A stretch of 32,000 nt of DNA from the NCBI RefSeq assembly GCF_017876815.1, contig NZ_JAGIOS010000001.1, positions 1,740,001-1,772,000 on the forward strand, written 5' to 3'. Of this stretch, positions 629 to 20,734 are shown one piece after another. Source of the stretch: Sinorhizobium meliloti (GTDB taxonomy: Bacteria; Pseudomonadota; Alphaproteobacteria; Rhizobiales; Rhizobiaceae). The notes beneath the pieces were generated by a model that had not been told where the DNA came from, did no database searches, and saw nothing but the letters and a program-made list of their open reading frames with translations. The translations under genes were made by a program, and so were the position numbers. Numbering within the stretch: the first letter of the stretch is position 1; every line of letters starts with the position of its first letter.

Positions 629-1981
629 TCAGGTCTCCTTGAACGCGCGCGACATGCTGTCTGTGATGGGCTTCGTCAGATATTCGAAGAAGGTGCGCTC
701 CGAGGTGGTGATCAGCACCTCGGCCGGCATGCCGGGCACGGGGTGGAAGCCGTGGATGCGTCCGATCTCGCTCGCCGGCACTTCGACGCGCACGATATAG
801 ACGTCGCGCTGCTGGCCGCCGGCTACTTCCTCCTCGATCGAATCCGCCGACACGTAGAAGACCTTGCCTTTCAGCACCGGCGTCGTGCGGCGATTGAGTG
901 CCGAAAGCCGGATCGTCGCGTCCTCGCCGACCTTGAGCTGATCGATGGCGGTACGCAGCAACTGCGCCTCGATGATCAGCGGCACATTGGCCGGTAGGAT
1001 CTCCATGATCGGCTTTCCGCTTGCGATGACGCCGCCGGCCGTATGGAAGTAGCTGCGCACGACGGTGCCGTCGACAGGCGAGCGGATGGTGGCGCGGCCG
1101 AGCACTTCTGACGCCTCCCGAACCTGCTCGCGTACGCCGTCGAGATCGGCCTCGGCCGCTTCGAGGCCATCGAGCGCCGCCTGCTTGTTGGTATTGACGG
1201 CGATGACCGCCTCCTGGCGGTAGCGGTCGATCTGCGTGTAGCTCTCCTTGACCTCGGATTCGAGCCGGCCGATCTCGCCGATCGCGTCGGCGATCGCGCG
1301 GTCCAACGCCATGAGTTCCGGGCGCCGGATCAGGCCCTTGTCGGCGAGCTTGCTCTTGGCCTCCCGCTCCTCGTTGAGAATCTCCAGCTGCCGGTTGAAC
1401 GATGCCTGCTGCAGAGCGTATCCCCTGGCCCGGAATTCAAGCGAACGGATGTTCTGGTCGATCAGGTTCAGCTGGTCGCGCAGCTTGATCTTCTTGCTCT
1501 GAAAATTGACGTTCTGGCTTTCCATGATGGCGCGGACGTCGGGATCGTCGGCCTGTCGGGCGACAATTTGGGGTACGCTGAAGGCGTCTTCGCCCACCGC
1601 CTCCGCCCTCAACCGCCCGACGACTGCCTCCAGGCGGAGGCGCTTGAGGTTGAGCATACGTGCGTTGGCCCGGGCGACCGTCTGGTCGAGCTTCACGAGA
1701 ATGTCGCCGGCCTTGACCTTGTCGCCCTCGGCGACCAGCAGTTCCTCGATGATGCCGCCTTCCAGATGCTGGACGATCTTGTTGTTGCCGTTGGCGACGA
1801 AGCTTCCCTGCGCGATGATTGCCGCGGCGAGCGGTGCCGCGAAAGCCCAGTAGCCGAAGCCGCCGAAGGAGATCGCGATCAGCGCCAGGCCAAGCAGGGT
1901 GTGGAGCCGGATCGAACGGGGGACCTCGGCATACCACTCCGCCGGATTTCGAGGTTCGCCGCTCCGCTTGTCGCTTTGCAT
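629..1981 (-). CDS. type I secretion periplasmic adaptor (membrane fusion protein), HlyD/PrtE family, 450 aa
   Basis: Translation from the ATG at 1979-1981 (MQSDKRSGEPRNPAEWYAEVPRSIRLHTLLGLALIAISFGGFGYWAF...) has one N-terminal TM segment. It then shows a lipoyl-like motif (AEGDKVKAGDILVKLD), a long coiled-coil and a C-terminal barrel (SPVDGTVV...GGVIASGKPIMEILP...IIEAQL...LKVGEDATIRLSA), as in HlyD-family T1SS adaptors. A GGAGAG RBS is present and the ATG lies 2 nt after the ABC gene stop. I rejected the extra 44 Arg-rich residues of the track ORF, which overlap the ABC gene. Confidence 0.9.
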   Translation of the reverse strand: MQSDKRSGEPRNPAEWYAEVPRSIRLHTLLGLALIAISFGGFGYWAFAAPLAAAIIAQGSFVANGNNKIVQHLEGGIIEELLVAEGDKVKAGDILVKLDQTVARANARMLNLKRLRLEAVVGRLRAEAVGEDAFSVPQIVARQADDPDVRAIMESQNVNFQSKKIKLRDQLNLIDQNIRSLEFRARGYALQQASFNRQLEILNEEREAKSKLADKGLIRRPELMALDRAIADAIGEIGRLESEVKESYTQIDRYRQEAVIAVNTNKQAALDGLEAAEADLDGVREQVREASEVLGRATIRSPVDGTVVRSYFHTAGGVIASGKPIMEILPANVPLIIEAQLLRTAIDQLKVGEDATIRLSALNRRTTPVLKGKVFYVSADSIEEEVAGGQQRDVYIVRVEVPASEIGRIHGFHPVPGMPAEVLITTSERTFFEYLTKPITDSMSRAFKET

Positions 1982-1983
1982 CG

Positions 1984-4071
1984 TCACTCTCCGTGAATGC
2001 GGGATTGCCCGCGGTCGCCTTCGGCCTTTGCGCCAAGCGCGGCGAGCACCTCGTTTCGGGCGCCGAACATCGCCACGGTGCCTTCGTGCAGCACCATAAT
2101 CTTGTCGACACACTGCAGGAGAGCAGGGCGCTGCGTGATGGTGACGGTGGTGATGCCCTCCTTCCTGGCATGCAACAGCGCGCGGGCAAGTGCGGCCTCG
2201 CCATTGCTGTCGAGGTTCGAATTCGGCTCGTCGAGGACGACGAATTTCGGATTGCCGAAGAAGGCGCGCGCCAGAGCTATGCGCTGTTTCTGACCGCCCG
2301 ACAGCGGGGCGCCGTCAGCGGCGACCACGGTCTCGTAGCCTTGCGGAAAGGTTGCGATCAGTTCGTGCACGTCGGCGAGCACCGCCGCCTCATAAACCAA
2401 GCTGTCGTCGACATCGTCGCGCATGCGGCAGATATTGGCCTTGATCGTACCCGGGAAGAGCTGGACGTCCTGGGGAAGGTAGCCGATGCTTTCGCCGAAC
2501 TGGCGCTGATCCCAGTTGCGCAGGTCCATGAGATCGAGGCGAACACTGCCGGACGTGGGCAGAATCGAACCGACCAGCATCTTGCCGAGGGTGGTCTTGC
2601 CGGAGCCGGAATTGCCGATGACCGCAAGCGATTCCCCCTTTGCCAGCGAAAAGGAGATGCCGTTCAGGATCACCCGCTTCTGCGGCGGCGGGACGAAGAG
2701 GATGCGCTCGACGTCGAGCCTGCCTTCCGGCTTCGGCAGGCGCAGCCGCGGGAAGTTCAAGGGCGAGGTGAGCAAGAGCTGCCTGATGCGCTGATAGGCG
2801 GCACGCGAGTGATTGAGCTGGTTCCAGCCTTCGATAGCCCCTTCGACGGGCGCGAGCGCACGCCCGGCAATGATCGAAGCGGCGATCACCATGCCGCCGG
2901 TCAGTTGCCCTTCCATCGCCAGATGCGCTCCCCAGCCGAGAAGTGCCACCTGGGTGAACATCCGCACGGCCCTGGAGGCGCCGGTGAACATTATGTTGCG
3001 GTCCTGAGCGTAGACCTGCGCCTTGAGCGAGGCCGCCGTCTCCTGGCCCCACATCCTCACCGCTTCCGGAATCATCGCCATGGCATTGATGATCTGGGCG
3101 TTGCGCGCCATCGAGTCGAGATGAAAATTGGCCCGGCCGAGCGAGGCATTGGCTTCGCTGAACGGTTTTGTCGTCGCCTTCTGATTGAGATAGGCGATGA
3201 CGAAGAGAACCGTACAGCACAGGATGACGATCATGCCGAGTTGTGGCTGTATGAGGTAGACCACGATCACGAAGAGCGGTGTCAGCGGAGCGTCGAGGAA
3301 AGCGGTGAGCGTGCCGGAGGTGATGAAGGCGCGAAGCTGCTGCAGGTCGCCCAATATCTGGTAGTCCCGGCCGCTTCCGTGCAGCGAGGCTCGGGCTGCC
3401 GCACTGAGGATCGGTGTGCCGAGCTGGACCTCGATTTCGACGGCGGTGCGCATCAGGATGAAGCGGCGGATCGCGTCGAGAATAACCTGGAGCGCCACGG
3501 CGCCGAGCACGGCGATCGTCAGCATGACCAGCGTGTCCTGCGAGCGGCTGGTCAGGACCCGGTCGGATATCTGGAACAGATAGATCGGGATGGCCAGGAC
3601 CAGGACATTGATGGCCAGGGTGAAAGCGATGACGATCAGCATGTTGCGCCGGACAGCGGCCATGCCGTTGTGCAGGCTGGCGGCGAAGTTCGCCGGTCCC
3701 ATGCGCTTGTGAAGCGTGCTCCGGCCGCCGCCGTTTTCGCTCGCTTGCCCTTCACCCGTTGCGCTCGGTTCAACCGGGCGAAGGTCGCCTTGCTTCATCG
3801 GGCCCGGATCATTGTCGATCGTTCGCGGCAGCCCTGGGGGTTGCCGGCGTCCCACCTTGGGAACCTCGCCCTCGTTGCGGCACGCATCGGTCGATGCCGA
3901 TGCTTGCTCTCGCTCCGAGAAGCTTGCCGCGGCTGCCTTTCCGTCCGACCCTGACCGCTTTCCGAAGCGTGTGACAGCCTCGGCTTCGGCCGTCCCGGGC
4001 AGCTCCAGCCGTGCGACATCGTGGCGCTGCGGCTTGCCTCGCCCGGCATACCACTTCGACATGTCGTTCAT
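1984..4071 (-). CDS. type I secretion ABC permease/ATPase, PrtD/AprD class (no C39 peptidase domain), about 695 aa including an N-terminal extension
   Basis: Walker A GNSGSGKTT, ABC signature LSGGQKQRIALARA and Walker B VVLDEPNSNLD are present. The TMD begins with LFQISDRVLTSRSQDTLVMLT, typical of T1SS exporters. The start is uncertain. The ATG at 4069-4071 has a GGGGAG RBS at 5-nt spacing. The track start at 4236 would overlap the upstream gene by 62 nt and has a poor RBS. Internal ATGs at 3798 and 3702 have no RBS. Confidence 0.9.
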   Translation of the reverse strand: MNDMSKWYAGRGKPQRHDVARLELPGTAEAEAVTRFGKRSGSDGKAAAASFSEREQASASTDACRNEGEVPKVGRRQPPGLPRTIDNDPGPMKQGDLRPVEPSATGEGQASENGGGRSTLHKRMGPANFAASLHNGMAAVRRNMLIVIAFTLAINVLVLAIPIYLFQISDRVLTSRSQDTLVMLTIAVLGAVALQVILDAIRRFILMRTAVEIEVQLGTPILSAAARASLHGSGRDYQILGDLQQLRAFITSGTLTAFLDAPLTPLFVIVVYLIQPQLGMIVILCCTVLFVIAYLNQKATTKPFSEANASLGRANFHLDSMARNAQIINAMAMIPEAVRMWGQETAASLKAQVYAQDRNIMFTGASRAVRMFTQVALLGWGAHLAMEGQLTGGMVIAASIIAGRALAPVEGAIEGWNQLNHSRAAYQRIRQLLLTSPLNFPRLRLPKPEGRLDVERILFVPPPQKRVILNGISFSLAKGESLAVIGNSGSGKTTLGKMLVGSILPTSGSVRLDLMDLRNWDQRQFGESIGYLPQDVQLFPGTIKANICRMRDDVDDSLVYEAAVLADVHELIATFPQGYETVVAADGAPLSGGQKQRIALARAFFGNPKFVVLDEPNSNLDSNGEAALARALLHARKEGITTVTITQRPALLQCVDKIMVLHEGTVAMFGARNEVLAALGAKAEGDRGQSRIHGE

Positions 4072-4174
4072 GCTCGCTCCCCTGCGCTTGCGCTTGAAGT
4101 CGTTTCGGTTCGAACCGTCCAACGGGTCTTCCGTTCGAACCTGTGCAGTCCCAAGGGCTCGAAGCGGATCGGCT

Positions 4175-6229
4175 TCAAGCCAGTATCGTATGCATGACGT
4201 CGCTCCACTGGCTCCCGGACTGGTCGGTGCCGACATCGCCGTCCATGTCTTCGCCTTGCCGCGCCGTATCCTCGCCGATAAAGGCGATGAGTTCGGTCGT
4301 CAGACCGCCACTTTCCCGCTGAAGGTCCGGCATCCCGTCGACTATTCCCGATTGAATGAGCACCGCGTCGGAATAGGACCCGCCTCCGACATAGGTCGTC
4401 CCGCTGGAACCGTCGAAGTCGATGATTTCGGCGACATTAACGACGGCATTGTTTCCCGTATGCACCGTGACCGAGGCCTCCGATCCATCTTCGAGCACCT
4501 TGCCGACGGCATACGAGACGGCATCGGCGTCGCCGAGAATGCTGACCTGTTGGACGATCGTGATGTCGTAGAGATTGCCGGTGATGAACAGGATGTGCAG
4601 GTCGGCATAGCCCTCGAAATCATGGTCTCGCAGGAGTTCGTCCGGCAATGTACCGTCGCCCTCGCGCATCTGGTCGGCGGCCTCATGAAAGTAGTCCGGC
4701 ATTGCCTCAAAGCGGACGCCGGAGCTCACGTTTTCGATCGAGGCCATGTTCCAGACGAGATTGCCGCCCGTGTCCAGCGCGATGCCCTTGCCGGCGGATA
4801 TGCCTGCGATCTCGTCATTGTCGTAGAGGATGGAGATCTGGCTGATGACGTTGAGATCGACTAGCCGGCCGCCGACGAGGACCAGATCGTAATGCTCGGC
4901 AATGCCGAGGAACGATGCGACGTTCACTGCCGTGTTGCCGCCGCTGAGTACGGTCGTCTCCGCACCCGTCCTGGTGACGGTCAGCCTGTCATTGTCGCTG
5001 ACGAAGTTGTACTGCTCGATCCAATGGACGAGGGAAAGGTCGCCTTCGACGACATTCACCTGCCAGTTTTTTGGGAATGTCGGAGATTCGGCCGGAATCT
5101 CCGGTTCCCCGGGAAGGCTCGCCCCGGATTCGCCTCCCCCGAAGCTTGCTATGTTCAGTGCGACGGTCGTGGTCATCGTCGCGCATGTACCGGAGATCGC
5201 GCCGTCGAGCGTGTCCCTGTCGGCATAGACGTAGGATTGCGAGATGACATCGATTTGATGGTAGTCGCCCATCACGGCGGTCACGGGTGCGGCCGCGGCA
5301 GTGCCGACGACGCTGGCAACATTGGCGACGACATTGGTCCCCGCGTCGATGTCGAGGTCGCCGTTCTGAAGCGGTTTGTCGAGGGGCGTCTCGGCGGGGT
5401 GCGCGGTGTGCTCTCGCCCGGGAAGATTGTCGCGCAGTTCCGGCGCGGTCTCGGCGCGGGTGCCGTTGACATAGGTGCCTTCAATGCGCTCTGCGATGAG
5501 AACGGCATCGCCCGACTCGTTCTTCACCAGTTCGTCCGGAGAGGCGGCTTGCGGAAGGTTCTCCGGTCCGCCTGTCGCGGGCGCGGCCGGAACGGCCTGT
5601 TGGCTGGTGCCCGCCATGGAGGCAAGTGCTTCAAGGTTCGCCACCCCTGCGGCGAAAGAGGCGGGCGCATCGGCGGCGCCGATCCGCGCGAAGGGCGAGG
5701 CTTCAAGGGCTTCCGCGAGAAAATCTTCGAGCGTTTGGTCAACATGCGTCAGGTTGCGCGGTTCCACAAGCATGCCGGTCAGGTTCACGACATCGTCGTC
5801 ATGAAGGGTGCTTGCCTGATAGATATGGCTGAACACCGGGTCGGGACCCGCAGGAGGCATCGTACCCGACGCTTCGGGGCCGTTGCCGGAGATGCCGTGG
5901 TCCTCCCGGGACCGGACATCCACCTGTCCGGCTTGCGCCGCGCCGGCCGGTTGGTCGAGGTGATGCCGTGACGGGGCTACATGATCGGCGGAGTCGAGCC
6001 GGGCGATGTCGTAAGCCCGGAGTTCGTAGGAGATATCGGGATCGTAGCTTTTCAACGCGAAGTCAGACCGGAAATCAGGCGATTGTACGTAGTCGGAATC
6101 TTCCTTTTGCACAGTCTTCGGGGTTTCATATCCCTGCAGGTATTCAAATCTTATACGCGCGTCATCGATAGCCGTGTTGAACAGCCCTATGAAATGCGCA
6201 ACGATCTCGTTGATCTTCTCCGAGTGCAT
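4175..6229 (-). CDS. 684-aa acidic repeat protein, candidate T1SS cargo (non-RTX)
   Basis: ATG at 6227-6229 with a GGGGAAGGA RBS, located immediately upstream of the ABC/MFP pair. There is no N-terminal signal peptide. Five degenerate modules carrying an N-x-A motif and a hydrophobic-x-Q-x-S-I-L-x-D-x-D motif span aa 296-631. The C-terminus is acidic then hydrophobic (...GEDMDGDVGTDQSGSQWSDVMHTILA). There are no GGxGxD nonapeptides. Confidence 0.7.
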   Translation of the reverse strand: MHSEKINEIVAHFIGLFNTAIDDARIRFEYLQGYETPKTVQKEDSDYVQSPDFRSDFALKSYDPDISYELRAYDIARLDSADHVAPSRHHLDQPAGAAQAGQVDVRSREDHGISGNGPEASGTMPPAGPDPVFSHIYQASTLHDDDVVNLTGMLVEPRNLTHVDQTLEDFLAEALEASPFARIGAADAPASFAAGVANLEALASMAGTSQQAVPAAPATGGPENLPQAASPDELVKNESGDAVLIAERIEGTYVNGTRAETAPELRDNLPGREHTAHPAETPLDKPLQNGDLDIDAGTNVVANVASVVGTAAAAPVTAVMGDYHQIDVISQSYVYADRDTLDGAISGTCATMTTTVALNIASFGGGESGASLPGEPEIPAESPTFPKNWQVNVVEGDLSLVHWIEQYNFVSDNDRLTVTRTGAETTVLSGGNTAVNVASFLGIAEHYDLVLVGGRLVDLNVISQISILYDNDEIAGISAGKGIALDTGGNLVWNMASIENVSSGVRFEAMPDYFHEAADQMREGDGTLPDELLRDHDFEGYADLHILFITGNLYDITIVQQVSILGDADAVSYAVGKVLEDGSEASVTVHTGNNAVVNVAEIIDFDGSSGTTYVGGGSYSDAVLIQSGIVDGMPDLQRESGGLTTELIAFIGEDTARQGEDMDGDVGTDQSGSQWSDVMHTILA

Positions 6230-6310: not shown

Positions 6311-6326
6311 GCGGGCGTTCGCCCGC
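6311..6326 (-). terminator. intercistronic GC hairpin between the small and large cargo genes (possible attenuator or processing site)
   Basis: GCGGGCGTTCGCCCGC is a near-perfect palindrome in the 137-nt gap between the stop at 6367 and the start at 6229. On the minus strand it is followed by ACGTTTCCTTC, so the U-tract is only weak. Confidence 0.3.
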
Positions 6327-6366: not shown

Positions 6367-6918
6367 TCATTCGACGTCGCCATCCGACCCCGCCGGGATC
6401 ACGCCCGGATCGCCAACGATGGTGCTGACGTCGGCGTTGCTGAGAAGGTTCGCGCCCTGGACGATTTCGTGGTGGAAGTCCGGATTTACCGGGCCTGGCG
6501 GCGTCTCCGTCGAGGGGTGGGACGCATCCTCGCCCTTGAGATCCCAACCATCCGGGGCGAGGCCGTCGGCACCAGGTTCTCCGCTACCTGCGCCGGGATC
6601 GGCATTGCCGCTCTTGCTGACGTCATAAGCACGGTCCTGATCGGCGAGGCTATTGGCCTGGGCGAGGCTGAACCCGGCTTCGTAGATGCTGGCGCCATTG
6701 CCCAGAACATTGTCGACGTCAAGGGAAAAGGAAAAGCCGTCGCCGAGGGAGAAGGCAAAGTCGCCCCCGGCGGTCTCGGTGAGACTGGTGCTGCCACCGG
6801 CAACCGACCTGCTGGACGTGTTCGTCGCTACGCCATCGGCAAGCGCACCCGTCTTCAGCTCGTCATCGGCACTGAAGTTGTCGTGGAGCCCAAGATTCTT
6901 CTGTGAGGAATCGGGCAT
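6367..6918 (-). CDS. 183-aa highly acidic Gly/Asp/Ser-rich protein, second candidate T1SS cargo
   Basis: The ATG at 6916-6918 is preceded by GAGGAAG at about 6 nt. The track start at 6963 lacks an RBS. By my count there are 30 Asp+Glu versus 6 Lys+Arg, and no Cys. There is no signal peptide. It contains the mini-repeats GDFAFSL / GDGFSFSL / EAGFSLA. It is the first gene of the apparent T1SS operon. Confidence 0.6.
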   Translation of the reverse strand: MPDSSQKNLGLHDNFSADDELKTGALADGVATNTSSRSVAGGSTSLTETAGGDFAFSLGDGFSFSLDVDNVLGNGASIYEAGFSLAQANSLADQDRAYDVSKSGNADPGAGSGEPGADGLAPDGWDLKGEDASHPSTETPPGPVNPDFHHEIVQGANLLSNADVSTIVGDPGVIPAGSDGDVE

Positions 6919-7928
6919 AAGCACTTCCTCATAAGAGGGGGAGCCAGCACCGAAACCCTTCATCTTTTATAGGATTCTTGAGGCGCTGGCTCTTTTGGCG
7001 GTTTAGCGGAAATGAAATCTTCCGTCTCTGCTTGCAATGTCATTTTGGCGCGATACTAAGCGCCTAAATTTATACGTATGATAAATTCATAGTCATAAGA
7101 TTTGGCATATAAACGTAAGTATCTATACTTCCGATCTTCTACGCGAAACAACGACCGAAGACGCACAAAATGTTGGTGCGACCATTGGAGTGTGATCTGG
7201 AACGCTGCTGAGTGAAAGCTACCTATTGTGGTTATGAGACTCGGCACCGGCCGCCTCGGAATTTTCGCCTTATATTCGATGCGCCGCAACCGAAGCGCTC
7301 GTTTCGAGCGCAGCTCGCGCTTCCCTCGCCATGGCTGTGCATATACATTGATCCAGCCGCTGCGCTAAGAAACTGAAAATACTCGAGAATGTTGATCGGA
7401 GTCGTGCAGGTCGTTTGCCGGGGCCCGCTTGGAACGCGGGAGTGAAGGCCGGCTGCAGGAATCCGTGGCGGAAAGTGCGCCGGCCACCTGCGTCAGCACC
7501 CGATCGAGTGTATTGGCCGCGGCCCGCATTACCTTCGCGATAATCCGATGTGAGTATCGACCTCGTCAAACGGAGTGGCGAATACTTGTCCGAGTTACTG
7601 CGAAGAACTTCGCGGGACTGACGAGGCGTAAGGTGCGGCACCCCTCAAAACCGAGGGCCCGGCGAAAGGCGCGAGTGGCGTTGCCGATCCCGTACGAATT
7701 TCGCGGATTCGCCCAAAATTGGTTCGTTCTTGAACGATTTAGACAGGATTGTGGCCGCCACCTAATCCTTTTGGGCGGTTTTACATCCCCCATATTTACG
7801 ATACATTAGCCAACATAAATTCTTTTTTTCCAGAAATTTTTTTTATCCAAGCAATTTTCACAACGCGGGCCTTTCTCCACATGGGTAAAAAACCCGTAAA
7901 AACCAAGGGGAAGTCCGAGGAGGGGATA
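6919..7928. promoter_or_regulatory. ~1-kb divergent intergenic control region with strongly AT-rich flanks
   Basis: No convincing ORF. AT-rich blocks lie at about 7040-7290 and 7720-7930 in an otherwise GC-rich window. Homopolymer runs T7 (7823-7829) and T8 (7837-7844) lie upstream of the LuxR gene. The region sits between divergent starts at 6918 (-) and 7929 (+). Confidence 0.5.
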
Positions 7929-8717
7929 ATGTATCGTGCGAGTTCGGGGTTGGGCGGGTTCGAAGACAGCAAAAGTGTATTACCGAAAAAAAGCAAAATA
8001 GTCATGCTAGCCAGGACGGACCTCTTCGCCGAGTGTCTGACCCAGGCGATCGGGGCGCGTTTTCAGGACCGGGAAGTGGTGCGGCTTTCGGACGCCGACA
8101 GCCTTCTGGACGGCAACCTCGTAGATGTGACGCTGGTCATGCTCTACCGCGTGCCGACGGCAAACTTTCCGTCGATCATCAGGATGATCCATGAGTTTCA
8201 TCCGAAAGCGGCGATCGGCCTGCTGGTCGACAACGCGGAAGGGCTCGACGCGTCGGTTTCGCACCTGGTCGAGGAGGGGATGATCCACGGTGTGTTGCCC
8301 CTGAATCTCCACCTCGATGTCTGCCTCACCGCCATAGACCTCCTGATGAAGGGCGGCGAACATTTTCCCGCCGCACTGCTCAGGCGCCTCGCGCCGAAGA
8401 ATCCTGGAGAGCGGGACCTCGCCACCCGGAACGAGACGGCTTCTGAAAATGTCGATCCGGAGCGCAGGAAAGGATTTGGCCAGGTCGTCCTTACGACACG
8501 CGAAATCCAGATTCTCGATCTCATCTGCATGGGCACGCAGAACAAGATCATCGCAGATCGCCTCGGACTGTCCGAAAACACCGTCAAGGTGCATGTGCGC
8601 AACATCTACAAGAAGATGAACGTGCGCAATCGCACCGAGGCGGCCTCGCGCTATTTCAGAAACGACGGAGGCATGGGCCCTTCCCTCACGCCCTCGCCGA
8701 CGCGCTGGCGCAACTGA
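7929..8717 (+). CDS. LuxR/FixJ-family transcriptional regulator with a degenerate receiver-like N-terminal domain, 262 aa
   Basis: C-terminal GerE/LuxR HTH (LTTREIQILDLICMGTQNKIIADRLGLSENTVKVHVRNIYKKMNVRNRTEA). The ATG at 7929 is preceded by GAGGAGGGG. Alternative ATGs are at 7881 and 8004. The N-terminal domain has a receiver-like beta-alpha pattern, but the positions expected for the acidic pocket (KIVMLARTDLF) and the phospho-Asp (VDVTLVMLYRVP) are not Asp. Confidence 0.8.
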   Translation: MYRASSGLGGFEDSKSVLPKKSKIVMLARTDLFAECLTQAIGARFQDREVVRLSDADSLLDGNLVDVTLVMLYRVPTANFPSIIRMIHEFHPKAAIGLLVDNAEGLDASVSHLVEEGMIHGVLPLNLHLDVCLTAIDLLMKGGEHFPAALLRRLAPKNPGERDLATRNETASENVDPERRKGFGQVVLTTREIQILDLICMGTQNKIIADRLGLSENTVKVHVRNIYKKMNVRNRTEAASRYFRNDGGMGPSLTPSPTRWRN

Positions 8718-8806: not shown

Positions 8807-9919
8807 CTATTCCGCGGCCTCGTGGCCAAGGACGCCGCGCCGGATCTGGTCGGCTTCGATCGATTCGAACAATGCGCGGAAATTGCCTTCGCCGAAGCCC
8901 TCGTCGCCCTTGCGCTGGATGAATTCGAAGAAGATCGGACCGATCACCGTTCGCGAGAAGATCTGCAGCAGGATCTTCGTCATGCCGCCATTCACCACGC
9001 CCTCGCCGTCGATCAGGATGCCGTGTGTCCTCATCCGGTCGATCGGCTCGTCGTGTCCGTGAACGCGCTGATGGGACATTTCATAATAGGTTTCCGGTGG
9101 CCCCGGCATGAACTTCAGGCCGTTTTCGGCGAGTTTGTCGGTCGCATCGTAGATCGCCTCGGTACCGACGGCGATGTGCTGGATGCCTTCGCCTTTGTAC
9201 TTCTTCAGATACTCCTCGATCTGGCTCGTGTCGTCCTTCGATTCGTTCAGGGGAATGCGGATCTTGCCGCAGGGCGAGGTAATCGCCCGGCTGACGAGGC
9301 CGGTGATGCGGCCATCGATGTCGAAGAAATGGATCTGCTTGAAATTGAACAGTTCGCGATAGAAGGCCCACCACTTGTCCATGTTGCCGCGATAGACGTT
9401 GTGGGTCAGGTGGTCGAGATAGTAGAAGCCGACGCCGGGCGGCTTCGGATCACGCTCTCCCAGCCATTCGAACTCGGCGTCATAGGCCGATCCCTTTTCG
9501 CCGTAGGCTTCCACGAAATAGAGAAGCGAGCCGCCGATGCCGACGATCGCCGGCACGTCCAGGCACTTGTTGTTGCCGGTATAGGCTTCGGCGCCCTTGG
9601 CGACGGCGTGCTCGAAAGCATGCTTCGCGTCGACGACGCGCCAGGCCATCGACGGGGCGCAGGGCCCGTGCTCGCCGACGAAGCGCATGGCATGCGATCC
9701 GGCTTGCGCATTCAGGACATAGTTGATATCGCCCTGCCGCCAGACGGTGATGTCCTTGGTCTTGTGCCTGGCGATCGGCGTATAGCCCATACGGCCGAAG
9801 AGCTCCGCAAGCTTCTCCGGCTCCGGGTGGGCGAACTCCACAAACTCGAAACCGTCCGTCCCTGCGGGGTTCTCCGCCGAAATCGCGGGGGGCGGTGCGT
9901 CATGTGGGAACGGGCCCAT
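8807..9919 (-). CDS. hpd: 4-hydroxyphenylpyruvate dioxygenase, 370 aa
   Basis: The translation has the typical HPPD C-terminus (GILIDGE...ILLQIFS...GPIFFEFIQRKGDEGFGEGNFRALFESIEADQIRRG). The ATG at 9917-9919 has an AGGAGA RBS. I rejected the 53 extra residues of the track ORF. Confidence 0.93.
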   Translation of the reverse strand: MGPFPHDAPPPAISAENPAGTDGFEFVEFAHPEPEKLAELFGRMGYTPIARHKTKDITVWRQGDINYVLNAQAGSHAMRFVGEHGPCAPSMAWRVVDAKHAFEHAVAKGAEAYTGNNKCLDVPAIVGIGGSLLYFVEAYGEKGSAYDAEFEWLGERDPKPPGVGFYYLDHLTHNVYRGNMDKWWAFYRELFNFKQIHFFDIDGRITGLVSRAITSPCGKIRIPLNESKDDTSQIEEYLKKYKGEGIQHIAVGTEAIYDATDKLAENGLKFMPGPPETYYEMSHQRVHGHDEPIDRMRTHGILIDGEGVVNGGMTKILLQIFSRTVIGPIFFEFIQRKGDEGFGEGNFRALFESIEADQIRRGVLGHEAAE

Positions 9920-10049
9920 CGTCAGTCTCCTCTTATCCTCCAAACTCTGCTGGATTATGGCGCAGTTTCGATGCATGGTGCTTGTATTCTTGCGTGATTC
10001 AGCAGGATCGGCGCATGAATTGTGCAGAGAAGCGTTTGAGGGTGCATGA

Positions 10050-10529
10050 ATGGAGCTGCTTGACGGATTCGATCTCAAGATCCTGAGCGAACTGCAGCGC
10101 GACGGTCATCTGACCAACAACGAATTGTCCGAGCGCGTCGCGCTGTCTCCTTCGCAATGTTCGCGCCGGCGTACGCGCCTGGAGGCGGAAGGCTTCATCA
10201 CCGGCTACCAGGCGCAGATCGACCGTCAGAAGCTGGGGCTCGATCTGATGGTGGTGATTTCGGTCACGCTGGCCACGCACAATCGCGACAATGCCAAGCG
10301 TTTCGCCAATCTCGTTTCGGCTCTGCCGGAGGTGCTGGAGGCCTACGCGCTGACTGGTGAAATGGACTACCATCTGCGCGTCGTGACGCCGGATCTTGCC
10401 GGGCTCTCCCGCTTCGTCAACGAGGTGCTCCTGCCGCATGACAGCGTGCAGCACGTCAAGACATCGATCGTACTGGAGACGCTCAAGAGTTTCGAGGGGC
10501 TGCCGATACCGGCGCGGATGAAGGGGTAA
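10050..10529 (+). CDS. Lrp/AsnC-family transcriptional regulator, 159 aa
   Basis: MELLDGFDLKILSELQRDGHLTNNELSERVALSPSQCSRRRTRLEAEGFI is a classical Lrp/AsnC HTH, followed by a RAM-type C-terminal domain. The gene is divergent from hpd. A GAGGG RBS is present. Confidence 0.9.
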   Translation: MELLDGFDLKILSELQRDGHLTNNELSERVALSPSQCSRRRTRLEAEGFITGYQAQIDRQKLGLDLMVVISVTLATHNRDNAKRFANLVSALPEVLEAYALTGEMDYHLRVVTPDLAGLSRFVNEVLLPHDSVQHVKTSIVLETLKSFEGLPIPARMKG

Positions 10530-10551
10530 GCGCTAACCGTCCGCACCTTTG

Positions 10552-10998
10552 CTAGCGGTCATTGATCGCCCGCTCCACGGCGCCCAGGCCCTGCGAGAGC
10601 GCCTCCATATTCTCTGCCCCAAGCACGGAATGCAGCTCCGCCTGATAGTCGCTCGCAAGCTCGGTCAGCTCCCTATAGGCCTGCCGGCCCGCCGGCGTCA
10701 GCGCCAGATGCTCGAAACGGCGGTCCCGCCCGTCCTCCTCGCGCTTCAGCCAGCGGCGCTGCTCGAGGCTGAAGACCGCGCGGCTTACTTTCGTCTTGTG
10801 CATGGTGGAGTGCGCGCCGATTTCGGTTGCCGTCATGCTGCGGCGGGAGCTGCCGAGTGCCGCAAGCGTTCTCCATTCCGGGCGCGTCAGCTGGTATCGC
10901 GCTTTGTATTGTGCGGCAAAACGGAGGGCGACGAATTCCGCCGCCCGGTTCAGCCGATAGGGCAGGAAGTTCTCCAGTTCGAACCGCTCCTCGGCCAT
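10552..10998 (-). CDS. MarR-family transcriptional regulator, 148 aa
   Basis: Winged-helix MarR pattern (...TRPEWRTLAALGSSRRSMTATEIGAHSTMHKTKVSRAVFSLEQRRWLKREEDGRDRR...). ATG with an AAGGAAGGAAAG RBS. The gene is divergent from hmgA. Confidence 0.85.
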   Translation of the reverse strand: MAEERFELENFLPYRLNRAAEFVALRFAAQYKARYQLTRPEWRTLAALGSSRRSMTATEIGAHSTMHKTKVSRAVFSLEQRRWLKREEDGRDRRFEHLALTPAGRQAYRELTELASDYQAELHSVLGAENMEALSQGLGAVERAINDR

Positions 10999-11015
10999 GG
11001 CTTTCCTTCCTTGAT

Positions 11016-11046
11016 AGTTACAAAACTGACAGTTACGCTTGTAACT
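11016..11046. promoter_or_regulatory. candidate MarR operator in the marR-hmgA divergent promoter
   Basis: AGTTAC (11016-11021) is followed by the palindrome AGTTAC-GCTT-GTAACT (11031-11046), inside the 79-nt gap between the two start codons. Confidence 0.35.
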
Positions 11047-11077
11047 AATATAGCGAAGGAATGAGGAGGCTCAAGCC

Positions 11078-12439
11078 ATGTTGGAGAAGGCGGAAAAACA
11101 GCGGCGGGCAGGTTCGGGTCAGCAGCGCGCAGCCGGCTATATGCCTGGATTCGGCAACGACTTCGAGACGGAAAGCCTGCCCGGAGCGCTGCCGCAGGGG
11201 CAGAACAGCCCGCAGAAATGCAATTACGGCCTTTATGCCGAACAGCTTTCCGGCTCACCCTTTACGGCACCCCGCGGCACGAACGAGCGCTCCTGGCTCT
11301 ACCGGATCCGACCGAGCGTCCGCCACACCGGACGCTTCCGCAGGGTCGACTATCCGCATTGGAAGACAGCGCCGCATGTGGGCGAGCATTCCCTGGCGCT
11401 CGGGCAGTTGCGCTGGAGCCCTTTGCCGGCGCCCTCGGAAGCGCTGGACTTCCTTCAAGGCATCCGCACGATGACGACGGCGGGCGACGCGCTGACGCAA
11501 GCCGGCATGGCCGCGCATGCCTATGCCTTCAATGCCGACATGGTGGACGACTATTTCTTCAACGCCGACGGCGAGTTGCTGATCGTTCCCGAAACGGGCG
11601 CGATCCAGGTTTTCACCGAACTCGGCAGGATGGACGTGGAGCCGTCCGAAATCTGCCTCATACCGCGCGGCATGATGTTCAAGGTCACTCGCCTCGGAGA
11701 GGAGAAGGTCTGGCGCGGTTACATCTGCGAGAATTACGGCGCGAAGTTCACGCTCCCGGATCGCGGCCCGATCGGCGCCAATTGCCTTGCCAATCCGCGC
11801 GACTTCAAGACGCCGGTCGCCGCCTACGAGGACAAGGAAACGCCGTGCCGGGTACAGGTGAAGTGGTGCGGCTCGTTCCATATGGTCGAGATCGGCCATT
11901 CGCCGCTCGACGTCGTTGCCTGGCACGGCAATTACGCGCCCTACAAATACGACCTCAAGACCTTCTCGCCCGTCGGCGCGATCCTGTTCGACCATCCCGA
12001 TCCGTCGATCTTCACGGTGCTGACGGCGCCTTCGGGAGAGGAGGGGACGGCCAATGTCGACTTCGTCATATTCCCGCCCCGCTGGCTGGTCGCCGAACAT
12101 ACGTTCCGCCCTCCCTGGTATCACCGCAACATCATGAGCGAGTTCATGGGCCTGATCTACGGGCGCTACGATGCGAAGGAGGAAGGATTCGTTCCGGGCG
12201 GCATGAGCCTGCACAACATGATGCTGGCGCACGGGCCGGACTTCTCCGGGTTCGAGAAGGCTTCCAACGGCGAGCTGAAGCCGGTGAAGCTCGACAACAC
12301 CATGGCTTTCATGTTCGAGACCCGCTTCCCTCAGCAGCTGACGACGTTTGCCGCAGAGCTCGACACGCTGCAGGACGACTACATGGATTGCTGGTCCGGC
12401 CTCGAACGGAAATTCGACGGCACGCCTGGAATCAAGTGA
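11078..12439 (+). CDS. hmgA: homogentisate 1,2-dioxygenase, 453 aa
   Basis: Translation ([46 protein letters not shown]...[40 protein letters not shown]) is typical HmgA. The ATG at 11078 has a GAGGAGG RBS. Confidence 0.95.
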
Positions 12440-12519
12440 CTTCCGCCGCCGAACCGTGACATGCTGCAAATATCCGCGCCACCCGGCGAGGATCAACAAC
12501 GCATCGGGAACACCACTCC

Positions 12520-13536
12520 ATGAAACTCGCGACGCTGAAAGATTCCACCCGCGACGGCAAGCTCGTCGTGGTCTCGAAAGACCTGACCCGCTGCTCCGAG
12601 GTGGGTCATATTGCCCGCACGCTGCAGGCTGCGCTCGACGACTGGGCGCATGCGGGTCCGCGGCTGGAGCGCGTCGCCGAGGGGATCGAGACCGGGGCGC
12701 AGCCGACCATGCGATTTCATGAGCACGACGCAGCCTCGCCGCTGCCGCGTGCCTTCCAGTGGGCGGACGGTTCGGCCTATGTCAATCATGTCGAGCTTGT
12801 CCGAAAGGCGCGCAATGCCGAGATGCCGGCAAGTTTCTGGACCGATCCGCTGATCTATCAGGGCGGTTCCGACAGTTTTCTCGGCCCACGCGATCCGATC
12901 CTGATGGCCGACGATGCCTGGGGCATCGATATGGAAGGCGAAGCCGCTGTCATCGTCGACGACGTGCCCATGGGTGCGACGCTCGATGAAGCAAAGGCCG
13001 CGATCCGCCTAGTCATGCTCGTCAACGACGTCTCCCTGCGGGGCCTCATTCCCGGAGAACTCGCCAAGGGCTTCGGCTTCTATCAATCGAAGCCGTCCTC
13101 CGCCTTCTCGCCGGTCGCGGTGACGCCGGAGGAACTCGGCGAAGCCTGGGATGGCGGGAAGCTGCATCTGCCGCTTCACGTCGATCTCAATGGCGAGCCC
13201 TTCGGGAGGGCCAATGCCGGTATCGACATGACCTTCGATTTTCCGCAGCTGATCGTGCACGCCGCGCGAACGAGGCCGCTTTCGGCCGGCACGATCATCG
13301 GCTCGGGCACCGTTTCCAACAAGCTCGAGGGCGGGCCGGGCAGGCCGGTTTCCGAAGGCGGGGCCGGCTATTCGTGCATCGCGGAATTGCGCATGATCGA
13401 GACGATTGAAGGCGGGGCGCCGAAAACGCAATTCCTGAAATTCGGCGATGTCGTCCGCATCGAGATGAAGGATCGCACCGGCCATTCGATTTTCGGCGCC
13501 ATCGAACAGAAGGTCGGAAAATACGAGCGCGGCTGA
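12520..13536 (+). CDS. fumarylacetoacetate hydrolase (FAH) family protein, 338 aa, probable fumarylacetoacetase of the homogentisate pathway
   Basis: FAH-fold C-terminal motifs are present (EGEAAVIVDD..., ...GTIIGSGTVSN...). Its position between hmgA and maiA supports the pathway role. Confidence 0.85.
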   Translation: MKLATLKDSTRDGKLVVVSKDLTRCSEVGHIARTLQAALDDWAHAGPRLERVAEGIETGAQPTMRFHEHDAASPLPRAFQWADGSAYVNHVELVRKARNAEMPASFWTDPLIYQGGSDSFLGPRDPILMADDAWGIDMEGEAAVIVDDVPMGATLDEAKAAIRLVMLVNDVSLRGLIPGELAKGFGFYQSKPSSAFSPVAVTPEELGEAWDGGKLHLPLHVDLNGEPFGRANAGIDMTFDFPQLIVHAARTRPLSAGTIIGSGTVSNKLEGGPGRPVSEGGAGYSCIAELRMIETIEGGAPKTQFLKFGDVVRIEMKDRTGHSIFGAIEQKVGKYERG

Positions 13537-13547
13537 GGCCGGGCAGG

Positions 13548-14201
13548 GTGGAGACGGGTGTGGCGAACGAAACCGTGCTTTACGACTATTGGCGCTCGTC
13601 GGCGAGCTACCGGGTGCGGATCGCCCTCAACCTGTGCGGCGAAGCCTATCGCTCCGTCCCGGTCGACCTGCTCGCAAAGGCTCATCGCGCGCCGGAGCAT
13701 CTCGCCCGGAATCCGCAGGGATTGGTGCCGGTGCTCGACATCGACGGCGAGCGCCTCACCCAGTCGCTCGCCATCATCGAATATCTTGCGGAGACGCGGG
13801 ATGGGACGGGTCTCCTCCCGGCCCATCCCATCGACCGGCAACGCGTCCGCGCGCTTTCCTATGCCGTGGCGATGGATATCCATCCCGTCTGCAATCTCGG
13901 CGTGGTCGCCCGTGTGATGGCGGGCGCGGGCGACGGCGAGGCCGCGCGGCGCGAGTGGATGCAGAAATTCATCGGCGAGGGTCTCGCTGCCTTCGAGCGT
14001 ATGCTGGACCACCCCGCGACCGGTGCATTCTGCCATGGCGATCGTCCGACGATGGCGGATCTCTGCCTTGTGCCCCAGGTCTACAATGCGCGGCGCTGGG
14101 ATGTCGATCTTGCGGCCTGCCCGCTTCTGGTCGCCATAGATCGCCGCTGCGCCGGCATCGACGCCTTCCAGAGGGCGCATCCCGACCGCGCAAAACCTTA
14201 G
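13548..14201 (+). CDS. maiA: maleylacetoacetate isomerase (zeta-class GST), about 217 aa
   Basis: LYDYWRSSASYRVRIALNL...NPQGLVPVLDIDGERLTQSLAIIEYL is the zeta-GST/MaiA signature. It starts at GTG 13548, with an alternative GTG at 13560. Confidence 0.9.
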   Translation: METGVANETVLYDYWRSSASYRVRIALNLCGEAYRSVPVDLLAKAHRAPEHLARNPQGLVPVLDIDGERLTQSLAIIEYLAETRDGTGLLPAHPIDRQRVRALSYAVAMDIHPVCNLGVVARVMAGAGDGEAARREWMQKFIGEGLAAFERMLDHPATGAFCHGDRPTMADLCLVPQVYNARRWDVDLAACPLLVAIDRRCAGIDAFQRAHPDRAKP

Positions 14202-14364
14202 ATCCCCGTCGGGATGCGATTTCGTCATTCCGGACCTCGTGTGGCCTGTTCCGCCAAGCCGATGTCGCGAATGGATCGGCGGGCCGCAGATCGCCAAGCT
14301 AGTTTTTGCGCGACTGCCCGTGTAAGGGGGCGCGTGGGAACACCTCAAAACGAGAGATTCATCG

Positions 14365-15249
14365 ATGAAGAGCTATGTGCTGACCGTCAGCTGCAAATCC
14401 ACCCGCGGCATCGTCGCCGCCATCACCGGCTATCTCGCCGAAAAGGGCTGCTATATCAGCGACAGCTCGCAGTTCGACGATTTCCAGACGGGCCTGTTCT
14501 TCATGCGCCTCACCTTCATCAGCCAGGATGGCGCCAAGCTCGAAGAGCTGCGCGAAGGCTTCGAGCCGGTGATCAAGCGCTTCGAGATGATGATGGAGAT
14601 CCGCGATTCCGAGGAGCGCATGAAGGTGCTGCTCATGGTGTCGCGCTTCGGCCATTGCCTGAACGATCTTCTCTATCGCTGGAAGATCGGGGCGCTGCCG
14701 ATCGACATCGTCGGCGTCGTTTCCAACCACTTCGACTACCAGAAGGTGGTCGTCAACCACGACATCCCCTTCCACCACATCAAGGTGACGAAGGAGAACA
14801 AGCCCAAGGCCGAAGCCCAGCTGATGGACGTCGTCGAGCAGACCGGCGCCGAACTGATCGTGCTGGCCCGCTACATGCAGGTGCTTTCGGACGCGCTCTG
14901 CAAGAAGATGTCGGGGAAGATCATCAACATCCACCACTCCTTCCTGCCGTCGTTCAAGGGGGCGAACCCCTACAAGCAGGCCTATGAGCGCGGCGTGAAG
15001 CTGATCGGCGCGACGGCGCATTACGTCACCGCCGATCTCGACGAAGGTCCGATCATCGAGCAGGATATCGCCCGCATCACCCATGCGCAGTCGGCCGAGG
15101 ATTATGTCTCGATCGGCCGCGACGTCGAAAGCCAGGTGCTGGCCCGCGCCGTGCACGCCCATATCCACCACCGCTGCTTCATCAACGGCAACCGCGTCGT
15201 CGTCTTCCCGCCGAGCCCGGGTTCCTACGCCTCGGAACGGATGGGGTGA
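14365..15249 (+). CDS. purU: formyltetrahydrofolate deformylase, 294 aa
   Basis: An N-terminal ACT domain (YVLTVSCKSTRGIVAAITGYLAEKGCYI) is followed by a formyltransferase core (VSNH...IINIHHSFLPSFKGANPYKQAYERGVKLIGATAHYVTADLDEGPIIEQD). Confidence 0.93.
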   Translation: MKSYVLTVSCKSTRGIVAAITGYLAEKGCYISDSSQFDDFQTGLFFMRLTFISQDGAKLEELREGFEPVIKRFEMMMEIRDSEERMKVLLMVSRFGHCLNDLLYRWKIGALPIDIVGVVSNHFDYQKVVVNHDIPFHHIKVTKENKPKAEAQLMDVVEQTGAELIVLARYMQVLSDALCKKMSGKIINIHHSFLPSFKGANPYKQAYERGVKLIGATAHYVTADLDEGPIIEQDIARITHAQSAEDYVSIGRDVESQVLARAVHAHIHHRCFINGNRVVVFPPSPGSYASERMG

Positions 15250-15284
15250 TCGTCAATCCTTGCCAACATTGGCATTACAGCGCC

Positions 15285-15304
15285 GCGCGTCTTATTAGAC
15301 GCGC
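15285..15304 (+). terminator. short perfect hairpin downstream of purU
   Basis: GCGCGTCT-TATT-AGACGCGC has an 8-bp stem and 4-nt loop, 36 nt after the purU stop. There is no U-tract, so terminator function is uncertain. Confidence 0.35.
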
Positions 15305-15327
15305 AAAGGTGGCTGTAGTACTTTGAT

Positions 15328-15381
15328 CTACTGCATGTTTTTGTCCTTTAATCGGACACTATCAAAGGAAACATGCAGTAG
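15328..15381. repeat. long imperfect palindrome (hairpin element)
   Basis: CTACTGCATGTTT (15328-15340) pairs with AAACATGCAGTAG (15369-15381). An inner TCCTTT/AAAGGA pair extends the stem. Confidence 0.5.
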
Positions 15382-15392
15382 CGGTCACCCAC

Positions 15393-15554
15393 CCCCTCAA
15401 CCGCCTGCCGGCACCTTCTCCCCGCAGGCGGGGAGAAGGGATATGCTGCGCCCGCTCGCTCCCTCGAACGGGGCGGTGAATGCGGGATTCAGTTGGCGCC
15501 GCTTGTCCCTTCTCCCCGCCTGCGGGGAGAAGGTGGCGGCAGCCGGTTGAGGGG
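15393..15554. repeat. palindromic intergenic mosaic element (RIME/REP-like), two inverted ~47-bp copies
   Basis: Copy A (15393-15439) is CCCCTCAACCGCCTGCCGGCACCTTCTCCCCGCAGGCGGGGAGAAGG. Copy B (15508-15554) is its reverse complement with a few mismatches. Each copy has an internal hairpin, CTTCTCCCCGC..GCGGGGAGAAG. The element lies between the convergent purU and lpdV genes. Confidence 0.7.
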
Positions 15555-15633
15555 CAATCCCGACCGAAGGAGGTTGAGGCGGTTGGGTTCCCGAGGGATG
15601 AAGCCGGCGCGCGGGAGGGGTTCGGGCGTCGCT

Positions 15634-17028: not shown

Positions 17029-17034
17029 GGACGC

Positions 17035-18315: not shown

Positions 18316-18318
18316 GGG

Positions 18319-19332: not shown

Positions 19333-19333
19333 G

Positions 19334-20734
<1,401 letters not shown>

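Follow-up and report, generated by a model that had tools for sequence, protein, structure and literature searches.

What is the 684-amino-acid (aa) protein that Sinorhizobium meliloti encodes directly beside a type I secretion system (T1SS)? Do the degenerate modules of its C-terminal half form a genuine repeat of a new kind? The gene lies in a stretch of 32,000 nucleotides of assembly GCF_017876815.1 (contig NZ_JAGIOS010000001.1, positions 1,740,001 to 1,772,000 of the forward strand), called the window below, and its product is called the repeat protein. Here, we show using alignment statistics, profile comparisons and searches of family and structure databases that the five-module repeat is real, ancient and degenerate, and that this repeat type is absent from the curated libraries searched. 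Gene context and composition further make the protein the probable cargo of the adjacent exporter, and structure prediction and residue coevolution point to one compact all-beta domain.

Five degenerate modules with a common origin

A preliminary description of this DNA had proposed five tandem modules. The five nucleotide spans that it gave translate to residues 296-338, 353-414, 429-473, 487-569 and 590-631 and contain every peptide quoted for them. The gene and its modules (M1 to M5, with strands b0 to b4 as predicted below) are laid out as follows.

4175..6229, minus strand: gene of the 684-aa repeat protein, from the translation of its open reading frame.
5195..5368, minus strand: M1, aa 288-345; b0, the G297-x-N299 turn, b1, b2, a long b3 around Q331, and D337-x-D339.
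4970..5188, minus strand: M2, aa 348-420; divergent, with the G-x-N missing, N359 kept and a loop insert at 368-387.
Within 4970..5188, minus strand: tail of M2, around Q406, with D412-N-D414.
4796..4969, minus strand: M3, aa 421-478; minimal and most canonical, with G430-G-N432, N436, Q464 and D470-N-D472.
4505..4789, minus strand: M4, aa 481-575; head 482-501 and tail 547-572, with Q561 and D567-A-D569.
Within 4505..4789, minus strand: insert of M4, about 40 aa, helical, with helices at 512-523 and 530-533.
4319..4483, minus strand: M5, aa 583-637; G592-N-N594, N598 and Q626, the terminal Asp-x-Asp being degenerate.

Could the repeat be a compositional artefact, in which the modules of a Val/Asn/Asp/Gly-rich beta protein share no common origin? 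The composition of the sequence is biased, and M2 taken alone has no significant similarity to any other module: when module pairs were scored by Smith-Waterman against 300 composition-preserving shuffles, M2 reached a z of just 0.1-2.6 with the others. The remaining pairs gave 8.9 (M1/M3), 7.3 (M3/M4), 5.4 (M3/M5), 4.9 (M1/M5), 4.0 (M1/M4) and 3.5 (M4/M5), and the shuffles never attained the scores of the first four. Module sub-alignments taken from a 33-sequence family alignment and compared by hhalign joined M1 to M3 with 93% probability (E 2.4e-7), M3 to M4 with 92%, M1 to M5 with 84% and M3 to M5 with 80%, while all pairs with M2 stayed below 5%. We also aligned the whole-protein profile to itself and listed the alternative alignments, a procedure that does not presuppose module boundaries. 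Two off-diagonal alignments emerged, one of residues 391-602 with 316-498 (96%, E 4e-9, 164 columns), shifted by one module, and one of residues 297-441 with 430-603 (94%, E 1.5e-7), shifted by two. M2 falls in register with its neighbours in both, and it is demonstrable solely in this whole-profile context. Finally, a gap-free alignment of 58 columns accommodates M1, M3 and M5 of a dozen genera, with G10, N12, G34 and Q44 invariant and N16 and V32 near-invariant. The shuffles, the self-alignment and the four residues invariant across genera refute the artefact, to which we attach next to no probability. The claim of five degenerate modules therefore stands, with pairwise z of 4-9 and an internal similarity that is significant by profile self-alignment.

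The modules are less regular than had been proposed. The G-x-N-x-x-x-N pattern, described as the start of each module, occurs exactly four times, in M1, M3, M4 and M5, but not in M2, which keeps the second Asn only. M4 is a genuine module but is split by its helical insert: a hidden Markov model (HMM) built from M1, M3 and M5 only matches it as two halves, at 482-501 and 547-572, and M4 is therefore a normal module that has been interrupted. The Asp-x-Asp ends are well kept in the family, D337, D470, D567 and D569 being invariant and D339, D412, D414 and D472 conserved at 90% or more.

A repeat type absent from curated libraries

Is the repeat already known under another name? In Pfam-A the repeat protein matched nothing beyond a chance hit to SlpA_D2 (E 0.32, 12 bits against a cut-off of 24.5), and in NCBIfam (TIGRFAM) zero families reached E<=1, T1SS repeat models included. 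None of the curated T1SS repeat domains (T1SS-143 repeat, VCBS, Calx-beta, BIg, cadherin-like) was matched in either library, and neither Beta_helix/PbH1 nor Rap (cadherin-like) domains were detected there. Five distant relatives and the neighbouring small proteins likewise had no Pfam or NCBIfam match. Among all PDB sequences, the whole-protein profile found no match and the module profile chance matches only. The preliminary description had also set the modules apart from the RTX nonapeptide, and rightly so, as the expressions GG.G.D and G.G.D have zero matches in the repeat protein and HemolysinCabind (PF00353) does not appear at E<=1. Literature searches on rhizobial exoproteomes, Agrobacterium T1SS substrates and the toaDE genes found no paper on the repeat family, the toaD query being swamped by unrelated words. 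The protein defines a domain and repeat family that Pfam, NCBIfam and the PDB all lack. Two outcomes had been named beforehand as refuting the proposal, a lack of significant similarity between the modules and a hit to a repeat family already described; neither occurred.

Comparison with known type I substrates places the family beside, rather than within, the RTX proteins (PF00353). Like these, the repeat protein is encoded next to a PrtD/AprD-type ATP-binding cassette (ABC) exporter and its adaptor, is very acidic with few Cys residues, lacks an N-terminal signal peptide and carries C-terminal repeats followed by an unstructured putative signal; its Asp-rich and Gly/Asn-rich turns between strands could bind Ca2+. 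Unlike these, it lacks GGxGxDxUx, and its unit is 55-95 aa long instead of 9, has 11- and 15-residue strands and is present in five fixed copies. If secreted, it would join the RTX paradigm as a second kind of repeat that folds after type I export, and it may help to understand or engineer calcium-triggered or secretion-coupled folding. The parallel beta-helix glycanases PlyA, PlyB and Rns1 and the Rap adhesins are also rhizobial; they lack RTX repeats, are secreted by a PrtD-like system and, with beta-helical or beta-rich structures, act outside the cell (PMC2275737, PMC9907072), but they use the promiscuous PrsDE, whereas the present family has its own ABC exporter and adaptor. Rns1 itself, the type I-secreted nodulation-specificity protein (PMC9907072), was considered as a candidate identity and rejected, being a pSymB-encoded protein of 449 aa with PbH1 repeats.

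A widespread family with a constant module layout

A 'hypothetical protein' recorded for Sinorhizobium meliloti matches the repeat protein at 100% identity. A word-indexed search returned 131 homologues, full-length, 35-90% identical and all from Rhizobiaceae; none of them comes with a precomputed Pfam domain, and UniRef calls some of them 'Type I secretion protein'. An exhaustive profile search that covered 1.84 billion cluster representatives (50% identity clusters) yielded 699 proteins at E<=1e-3, of which 485 lie at E<=1e-30, and almost all are 640-750 aa long and align over their full length. Cluster look-ups, together with another homologue search, added Aureimonas, Pelagibacterium, Sulfitobacter, Aliiroseovarius and Candidatus Halocynthiibacter, and a contig scan by conserved peptide patterns returned Rhizobiaceae only. 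The family is found in hundreds of alphaproteobacterial lineages, including S. meliloti, Agrobacterium tumefaciens, Rhizobium leguminosarum and marine bacteria of the Roseobacter group.

Does the number of modules vary, as it might in an expandable array? The module HMM found M1, M3, the split M4 and M5 in all of 13 diverse members; M2 gave a weak tail match at most (4/13) and was assigned from where it lies, after M1 and before M3. Additional length resides in the N-terminal part or inside the M4 insert. Because the layout is constant in these members, we describe a fixed five-module domain. Of the tandem array that had been proposed, the five modules remain, but they build a single domain (13/13 relatives, predicted template modelling score, pTM, 0.72) and not an expandable array. 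In two metagenomic relatives, P0240 (849 aa) and P0256 (770 aa), up to about 230 residues are inserted within module 4, ahead of its tail, so that the b1-b2 loop of this module tolerates whole extra domains.

Predicted fold and coevolution of the modules

How might the five modules be arranged in space? A full-length AlphaFold2 (AF2) model was poor for residues 1-127 and the C-terminal tail and reasonable for residues 128-270 and the repeat region, and a model of residues 286-645, based on 74 sequences, reached a mean predicted local distance difference test score of 75.2 and a pTM of 0.72. The same strand pattern is predicted in all five modules: b0 (about 5 residues), the G-x-N turn, b1 (9-13), b2 (4-7), b3 (14-15, with the Gln central), the Asp-x-Asp turn and b4 (3-4). 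As the preliminary description had anticipated, the region is predicted to be beta-rich: it is modelled as all-beta, helices being confined to the M4 insert and the M4-M5 linker.

We complemented the model with mean-field direct-coupling analysis (DCA) of residues 125-645 (window 4295-5857, minus strand), for which 300 members were aligned (effective number 204). The strongest strand-level couplings are parallel and lie exactly at the homologous register (z 4.9-8.7; 120 shifted-register controls gave a mean of 0.42, a standard deviation of 1.07 and a maximum of 3.7). For the module tails (b2+b3+b4) they link M2-M4 (z 8.0), M1-M3 (6.6), M3-M4 (5.9), M1-M5 (4.9) and, most strongly, M2 with a tail-like segment termed N0 (8.7); for the heads (b0+b1) they link M4-M5 (7.3) and M1-M5 (6.2). 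Local antiparallel-type couplings join b2-b3 and b3-b4 within modules. The in-register couplings between modules indicate that the modules pack together in one domain, and if homologous strands run parallel and in register, their Asn, Gln and Asp residues would form ladders, as in beta-solenoids. Solenoid-like packing of the modules is moderately supported by these predictions, and calcium binding at the Asp-x-Asp turns is plausible from their conservation.

The N-terminal ~290 residues had been described as non-repetitive, which they do not seem to be throughout. Two elements within them are conserved.

5783..5842, minus strand: cryptic sixth module tail (N0), residues 130-149, VFSHIYQASTLHDDDVVNL, a predicted long strand.
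6137..6229, minus strand: conserved N-terminal helix, residues 1-31, with M1, A11, H12, F13, G15 and R25 invariant family-wide.

In N0, Q138 is conserved at 90% or more and D144-D146 are invariant. The segment has weak hhalign matches to the modules (E 7e-4 to M3), and its coevolution with the M2 tail is the strongest in-register signal of all. Residues 130-149 look like one more module tail, and coevolution, which couples N0 and M2 in register, supports their being part of the fold.

An alternative is that each module is a small beta-sandwich domain of its own, Ig-like or cadherin-like, and that the five follow one another in tandem, as in many T1SS adhesins. All-beta modules of 55-95 aa, with conserved Asp-rich ends like the inter-domain calcium sites of adhesins, would suit such an arrangement, as would the antiparallel-type b2-b3 and b3-b4 couplings within modules. 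However, the five modules are fixed across orders, with length variation in the loops and the N-terminus; the AF2 model has no inter-module linkers, and its pTM of 0.72 holds over the whole 360-aa region; strong long-range parallel couplings run in register between modules; and no Ig, cadherin or BIg family was matched in Pfam or NCBIfam. Structure searches, too, yielded solenoids and not sandwiches. We consider tandem beta-sandwiches improbable.

These structure searches were made with Foldseek, in the PDB with full-length and domain-only models and among BFVD viral predictions, and gave no match at E<=0.001. The best E-values were 0.012 (PDB) and 0.003 (viral), with TM-scores that stayed under 0.1 for the PDB and did not exceed 0.21 for BFVD. 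The non-significant PDB candidates are almost exclusively beta-solenoids, namely CsgA, FapC, tapirin, SufB/D, ice-binding proteins, pectate lyases, AlgE4 and Hbp; CsgA stands at E 0.012 with a TM-score of 0.07, and pectate lyases come only at E>3. The parallel beta-helix of the pectate-lyase type has three-sided coils of about 22 aa, whereas the module period is at least 55 aa.

CsgA and FapC, which are strand-arc-strand beta-solenoids, are the nearest Foldseek neighbours, albeit non-significant, and they resemble the repeat protein in their five imperfect repeats, conserved Gln/Asn, Gly-x-Asn-x-Ala turn and parallel in-register strand coupling. Might the repeat protein then be a subunit or nucleator of an extracellular functional-amyloid-like fibre, with module 5 stacked on module 1, curli-like but T1SS-exported? 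M1 and M5 are the chain ends and yet are coupled in register at both head and tail, and a low-complexity Gly/Asn partner protein is encoded upstream. The M1-M5 coupling could equally be intramolecular, however, and the Foldseek TM-scores are below 0.1. The modules are two to four times as long as a curli repeat, export would proceed by a T1SS rather than by CsgG/FapF channels, and the loci of the window, R. leguminosarum and Sulfitobacter have no curli-type assembly genes nearby, nucleator and chaperone genes included. A relationship to curli by sequence was rejected, since hhalign gave a probability of 0.2% against five manually entered CsgA repeats (the curlin repeat being taken as 19-23 aa, S-x5-Q-x-G-x-G-N-x-A-x3-Q). 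Such a fibre seems very doubtful to us.

A candidate cargo of the adjacent exporter

What, then, could the repeat protein be for? Four further genes form a cassette with it, and two sequence elements bear on its export and expression.

1984..4236, minus strand: PrtD-type T1SS ABC permease/ATPase (TIGR01842, 751 bits against a cut-off of 510).
629..2113, minus strand: HlyD/AprE-type membrane-fusion (adaptor) protein (HlyD_3).
4178..4318, minus strand: acidic tail of the repeat protein, residues 638-684, modelled with low confidence (disordered), with a conserved L-x-x-E-x-I-A-F block and, at its very end, a D-V-M-x-T-[IV]-[LV]-A helix.
6367..6963, minus strand: 198-aa protein directly upstream of the repeat gene, acidic (pI 4.05), Gly/Asp/Ser-rich and Cys-free, with no family match.
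6311..6326, minus strand: GCGGGC-GAAC-GCCCGC, a GC hairpin followed by a T-rich stretch, in the gap that separates the repeat gene from the small gene.
7749..8717, plus strand: LuxR/GerE-family regulator, divergent and conserved with the cassette.

In hly/prt-type operons the gene directly upstream of the T1SS ABC gene is normally that of the substrate, and in protease- and lipase-class substrates of PrtD/AprD exporters the signal consists of acidic and then hydrophobic residues at the extreme C-terminus. The repeat protein has such features of a T1SS substrate: a dedicated ABC exporter and adaptor gene adjoin it, and it is acidic and Cys-poor with a conserved acidic-hydrophobic C-terminus. 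Its isoelectric point (pI) is 4.17 and it has one Cys, and seven members across the family have a pI of 4.05-4.6 and no or one Cys. No Sec-type signal peptide was seen in the N-terminus, read by eye with no predictor run, and no strong hydrophobic segment was found in the protein. The same seven members end in a common L-x-x-E-x-I-A-F ... D-[VI]-[ML]-x-x-[VIM]-[LV]-A, and residues 632-684 are unstructured in the full-length AF2 model, the terminal helix excepted. From this sequence pattern we infer that the tail may be a type I secretion signal.

We consider it fairly probable that the repeat protein is the dedicated cargo of the adjacent PrtD-type T1SS and that its modules, together with the sixth tail, form one parallel-beta domain; secretion itself is well supported by context but unproven. 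The system would comprise the ABC exporter, the AprE/HlyD adaptor and a TolC-type outer-membrane channel encoded elsewhere, and both the repeat protein and its upstream neighbour may be expressed under the divergent LuxR/GerE regulator. The chain would be held unfolded in the cytoplasm, recognised via its C-terminus, where the last ~45 residues are predicted to be disordered and acidic and to close with the acidic-then-hydrophobic motif, exported in one step and folded outside the cell, where calcium at the Asp-x-Asp and G-x-N turns may drive folding. The C-terminal half would then be one compact all-beta domain of five anciently duplicated modules plus the tail at 130-149. Each module would run from a short strand through the G-x-N turn into an 11-residue strand with the second conserved Asn and an Ala, and on through another short strand into a 15-residue strand around the invariant Gln, ending in the Asp-x-Asp turn. 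Outside, the protein may serve as a structural or adhesive surface or matrix protein alongside the upstream Gly/Asn/Asp-rich protein; its biological role, whether in the matrix, in adhesion or in forming fibres with the upstream protein, is conjecture.

The cassette is well conserved. Of 81 related Rhizobiaceae loci, all 81 encode the small protein upstream and 78 contain the regulator, while downstream the ABC gene follows in 71 and the adaptor gene in 70; nearly all of the loci lacking ABC and adaptor stop about 300-600 bp past the repeat gene. The five-gene order is identical in R. leguminosarum, Sulfitobacter sp. SK012 and Halocynthiibacter. In the two Rhodobacterales genomes (Sulfitobacter and Halocynthiibacter) the upstream protein is expanded to 528-589 aa of Asn/Gly-rich low complexity and keeps a C-terminal F-x-x-E-x-V-Q-G-A-N-L-L-S-N block. 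A perfect-stem hairpin is present at the equivalent intergenic site of 36 of the 81 loci, and in Rhizobium and Agrobacterium it has a conserved 10-12-bp stem, CTGCACCGGC...GCCGGTGCAG. We read the hairpin as a possible terminator or attenuator, through which the small protein could be produced in excess. The 198-aa protein is a probable partner or co-cargo of the repeat protein.

The same conservation can be read the other way round, with the upstream Gly/Asn/Asp-rich protein as the true export and the repeat protein as a cytoplasmic or inner-membrane accessory such as a chaperone, modifier or plug. The upstream protein equals the repeat protein in tightness of linkage (81/81 loci) and is acidic and Cys-free, with a C-terminal block conserved across orders, and the terminator-like hairpin after its gene suggests excess production; the N-terminal helix of the repeat protein, for its part, is unusually conserved and has an invariant His. 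Yet it is the repeat gene that occupies the place of the substrate directly upstream of the ABC gene, and the repeat protein that has a cargo-like composition and an acidic-hydrophobic end, whereas the small protein ends in acidic residues. The repeat protein also matches no enzyme or chaperone family in Pfam or NCBIfam. An accessory role is therefore unlikely in our view.

A more far-reaching version makes the cassette a two-protein extracellular assembly system, in which the repeat protein, as a new non-sequential parallel-beta fold or as a head-to-tail polymer, would template or anchor the low-complexity Gly/Asn/Asp-rich protein, with curli-like logic on a T1SS chassis. We regard this as quite unlikely.

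A probable match to ToaDE

Which exporter is it? Krehenbrink and Downie described two enigmatic PrsD-like systems in R. leguminosarum 3841, one of which is ToaDE (RL0072/RL0071); for it they reported syntenic genes at 80% identity in S. meliloti and at 86% in A. tumefaciens, and no known type I substrate within 10 kb (PMC2275737). Like ToaDE, the present cassette holds a PrsD-like ABC exporter and an adaptor. We measured 79% identity between the ABC cores of R. leguminosarum and Ensifer sp. USDA 6670, the latter being 98% identical to that of the window, and 89% between those of R. leguminosarum and A. tumefaciens; the core of the window and that of a second R. leguminosarum locus (L001) are 81% identical. 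Because the measured 79% and 89% agree with the published 80% and 86%, the cassette is probably ToaDE, and the repeat protein probably its overlooked candidate substrate. No later paper on the ToaDE genes was found in the literature after PMC2275737. The cassette thus offers a candidate cargo, a partner protein and a regulator for a conserved T1SS, probably ToaDE, that has been without a substrate since the 2008 study, and with a concrete candidate cargo supplied, the orphan exporter becomes directly testable.

Several observations weigh against the repeat protein as a dedicated cargo with a single parallel-beta domain. The N-terminal parts of T1SS cargo are normally variable, and the strongly conserved N-terminal helix of the repeat protein is unusual in this respect. 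Alternatively, what the system chiefly exports could be the small protein encoded upstream. As to the fold, the confidence of the AF2 model is moderate, the couplings M1-M2 and M2-M3 and that between the tails of M4 and M5 are at background in the DCA, and coevolution implies a non-sequential order of the b3 strands, N0-M2-M4-M3-M1-M5. Because the couplings link non-neighbouring modules, a plain solenoid with one module per coil is not supported; a non-sequential parallel sheet, two sheets face to face, or contacts between subunits are possible. The identification with ToaDE has matching identity percentages as its sole basis, and no ToaD-dependent protein was seen in culture supernatants (PMC2275737), for which the expression conditions may have been wrong.

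Start sites and surroundings of the cassette

Ahead of its TIGR01842 core, the ABC exporter carries an N-terminal extension of about 190 aa that is charged, rich in Pro and poorly conserved. R. leguminosarum (765 aa) has the extension too, and it has no match to a C39 or C39-like domain. With the ATG as listed, the gene shares 62 nt with the repeat gene, so the true start may lie downstream, possibly at Met56. The GTG start of the adaptor gene, which overlaps the ABC gene, is probably over-called.

The Rhodobacterales cassettes contain an extra gene of 165 aa with no Pfam match, at 4301-4798 (minus strand) in L082 and 4141-4638 (minus strand) in L083. It overlaps the 3' end of the GerE gene in L082, adjoins it in L083 and is absent from the S. 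meliloti window.

Beyond the regulator, positions 8807-20731 of the window hold catabolic genes for tyrosine degradation (hpd, hmgA, fumarylacetoacetate hydrolase and a GST-type isomerase), followed by lpdA/bkdB/bkdA-type genes of a branched-chain keto-acid dehydrogenase. HPPD is not part of the cassette, because its adjacency is limited to Sinorhizobium/Ensifer (11/81 loci). In R. leguminosarum, unlike in S. meliloti, a polysaccharide cluster lies beside the cassette (L001, 1-4545), with GH26, DUF995, a cellulose-synthase-like GT2 and two epimerases.

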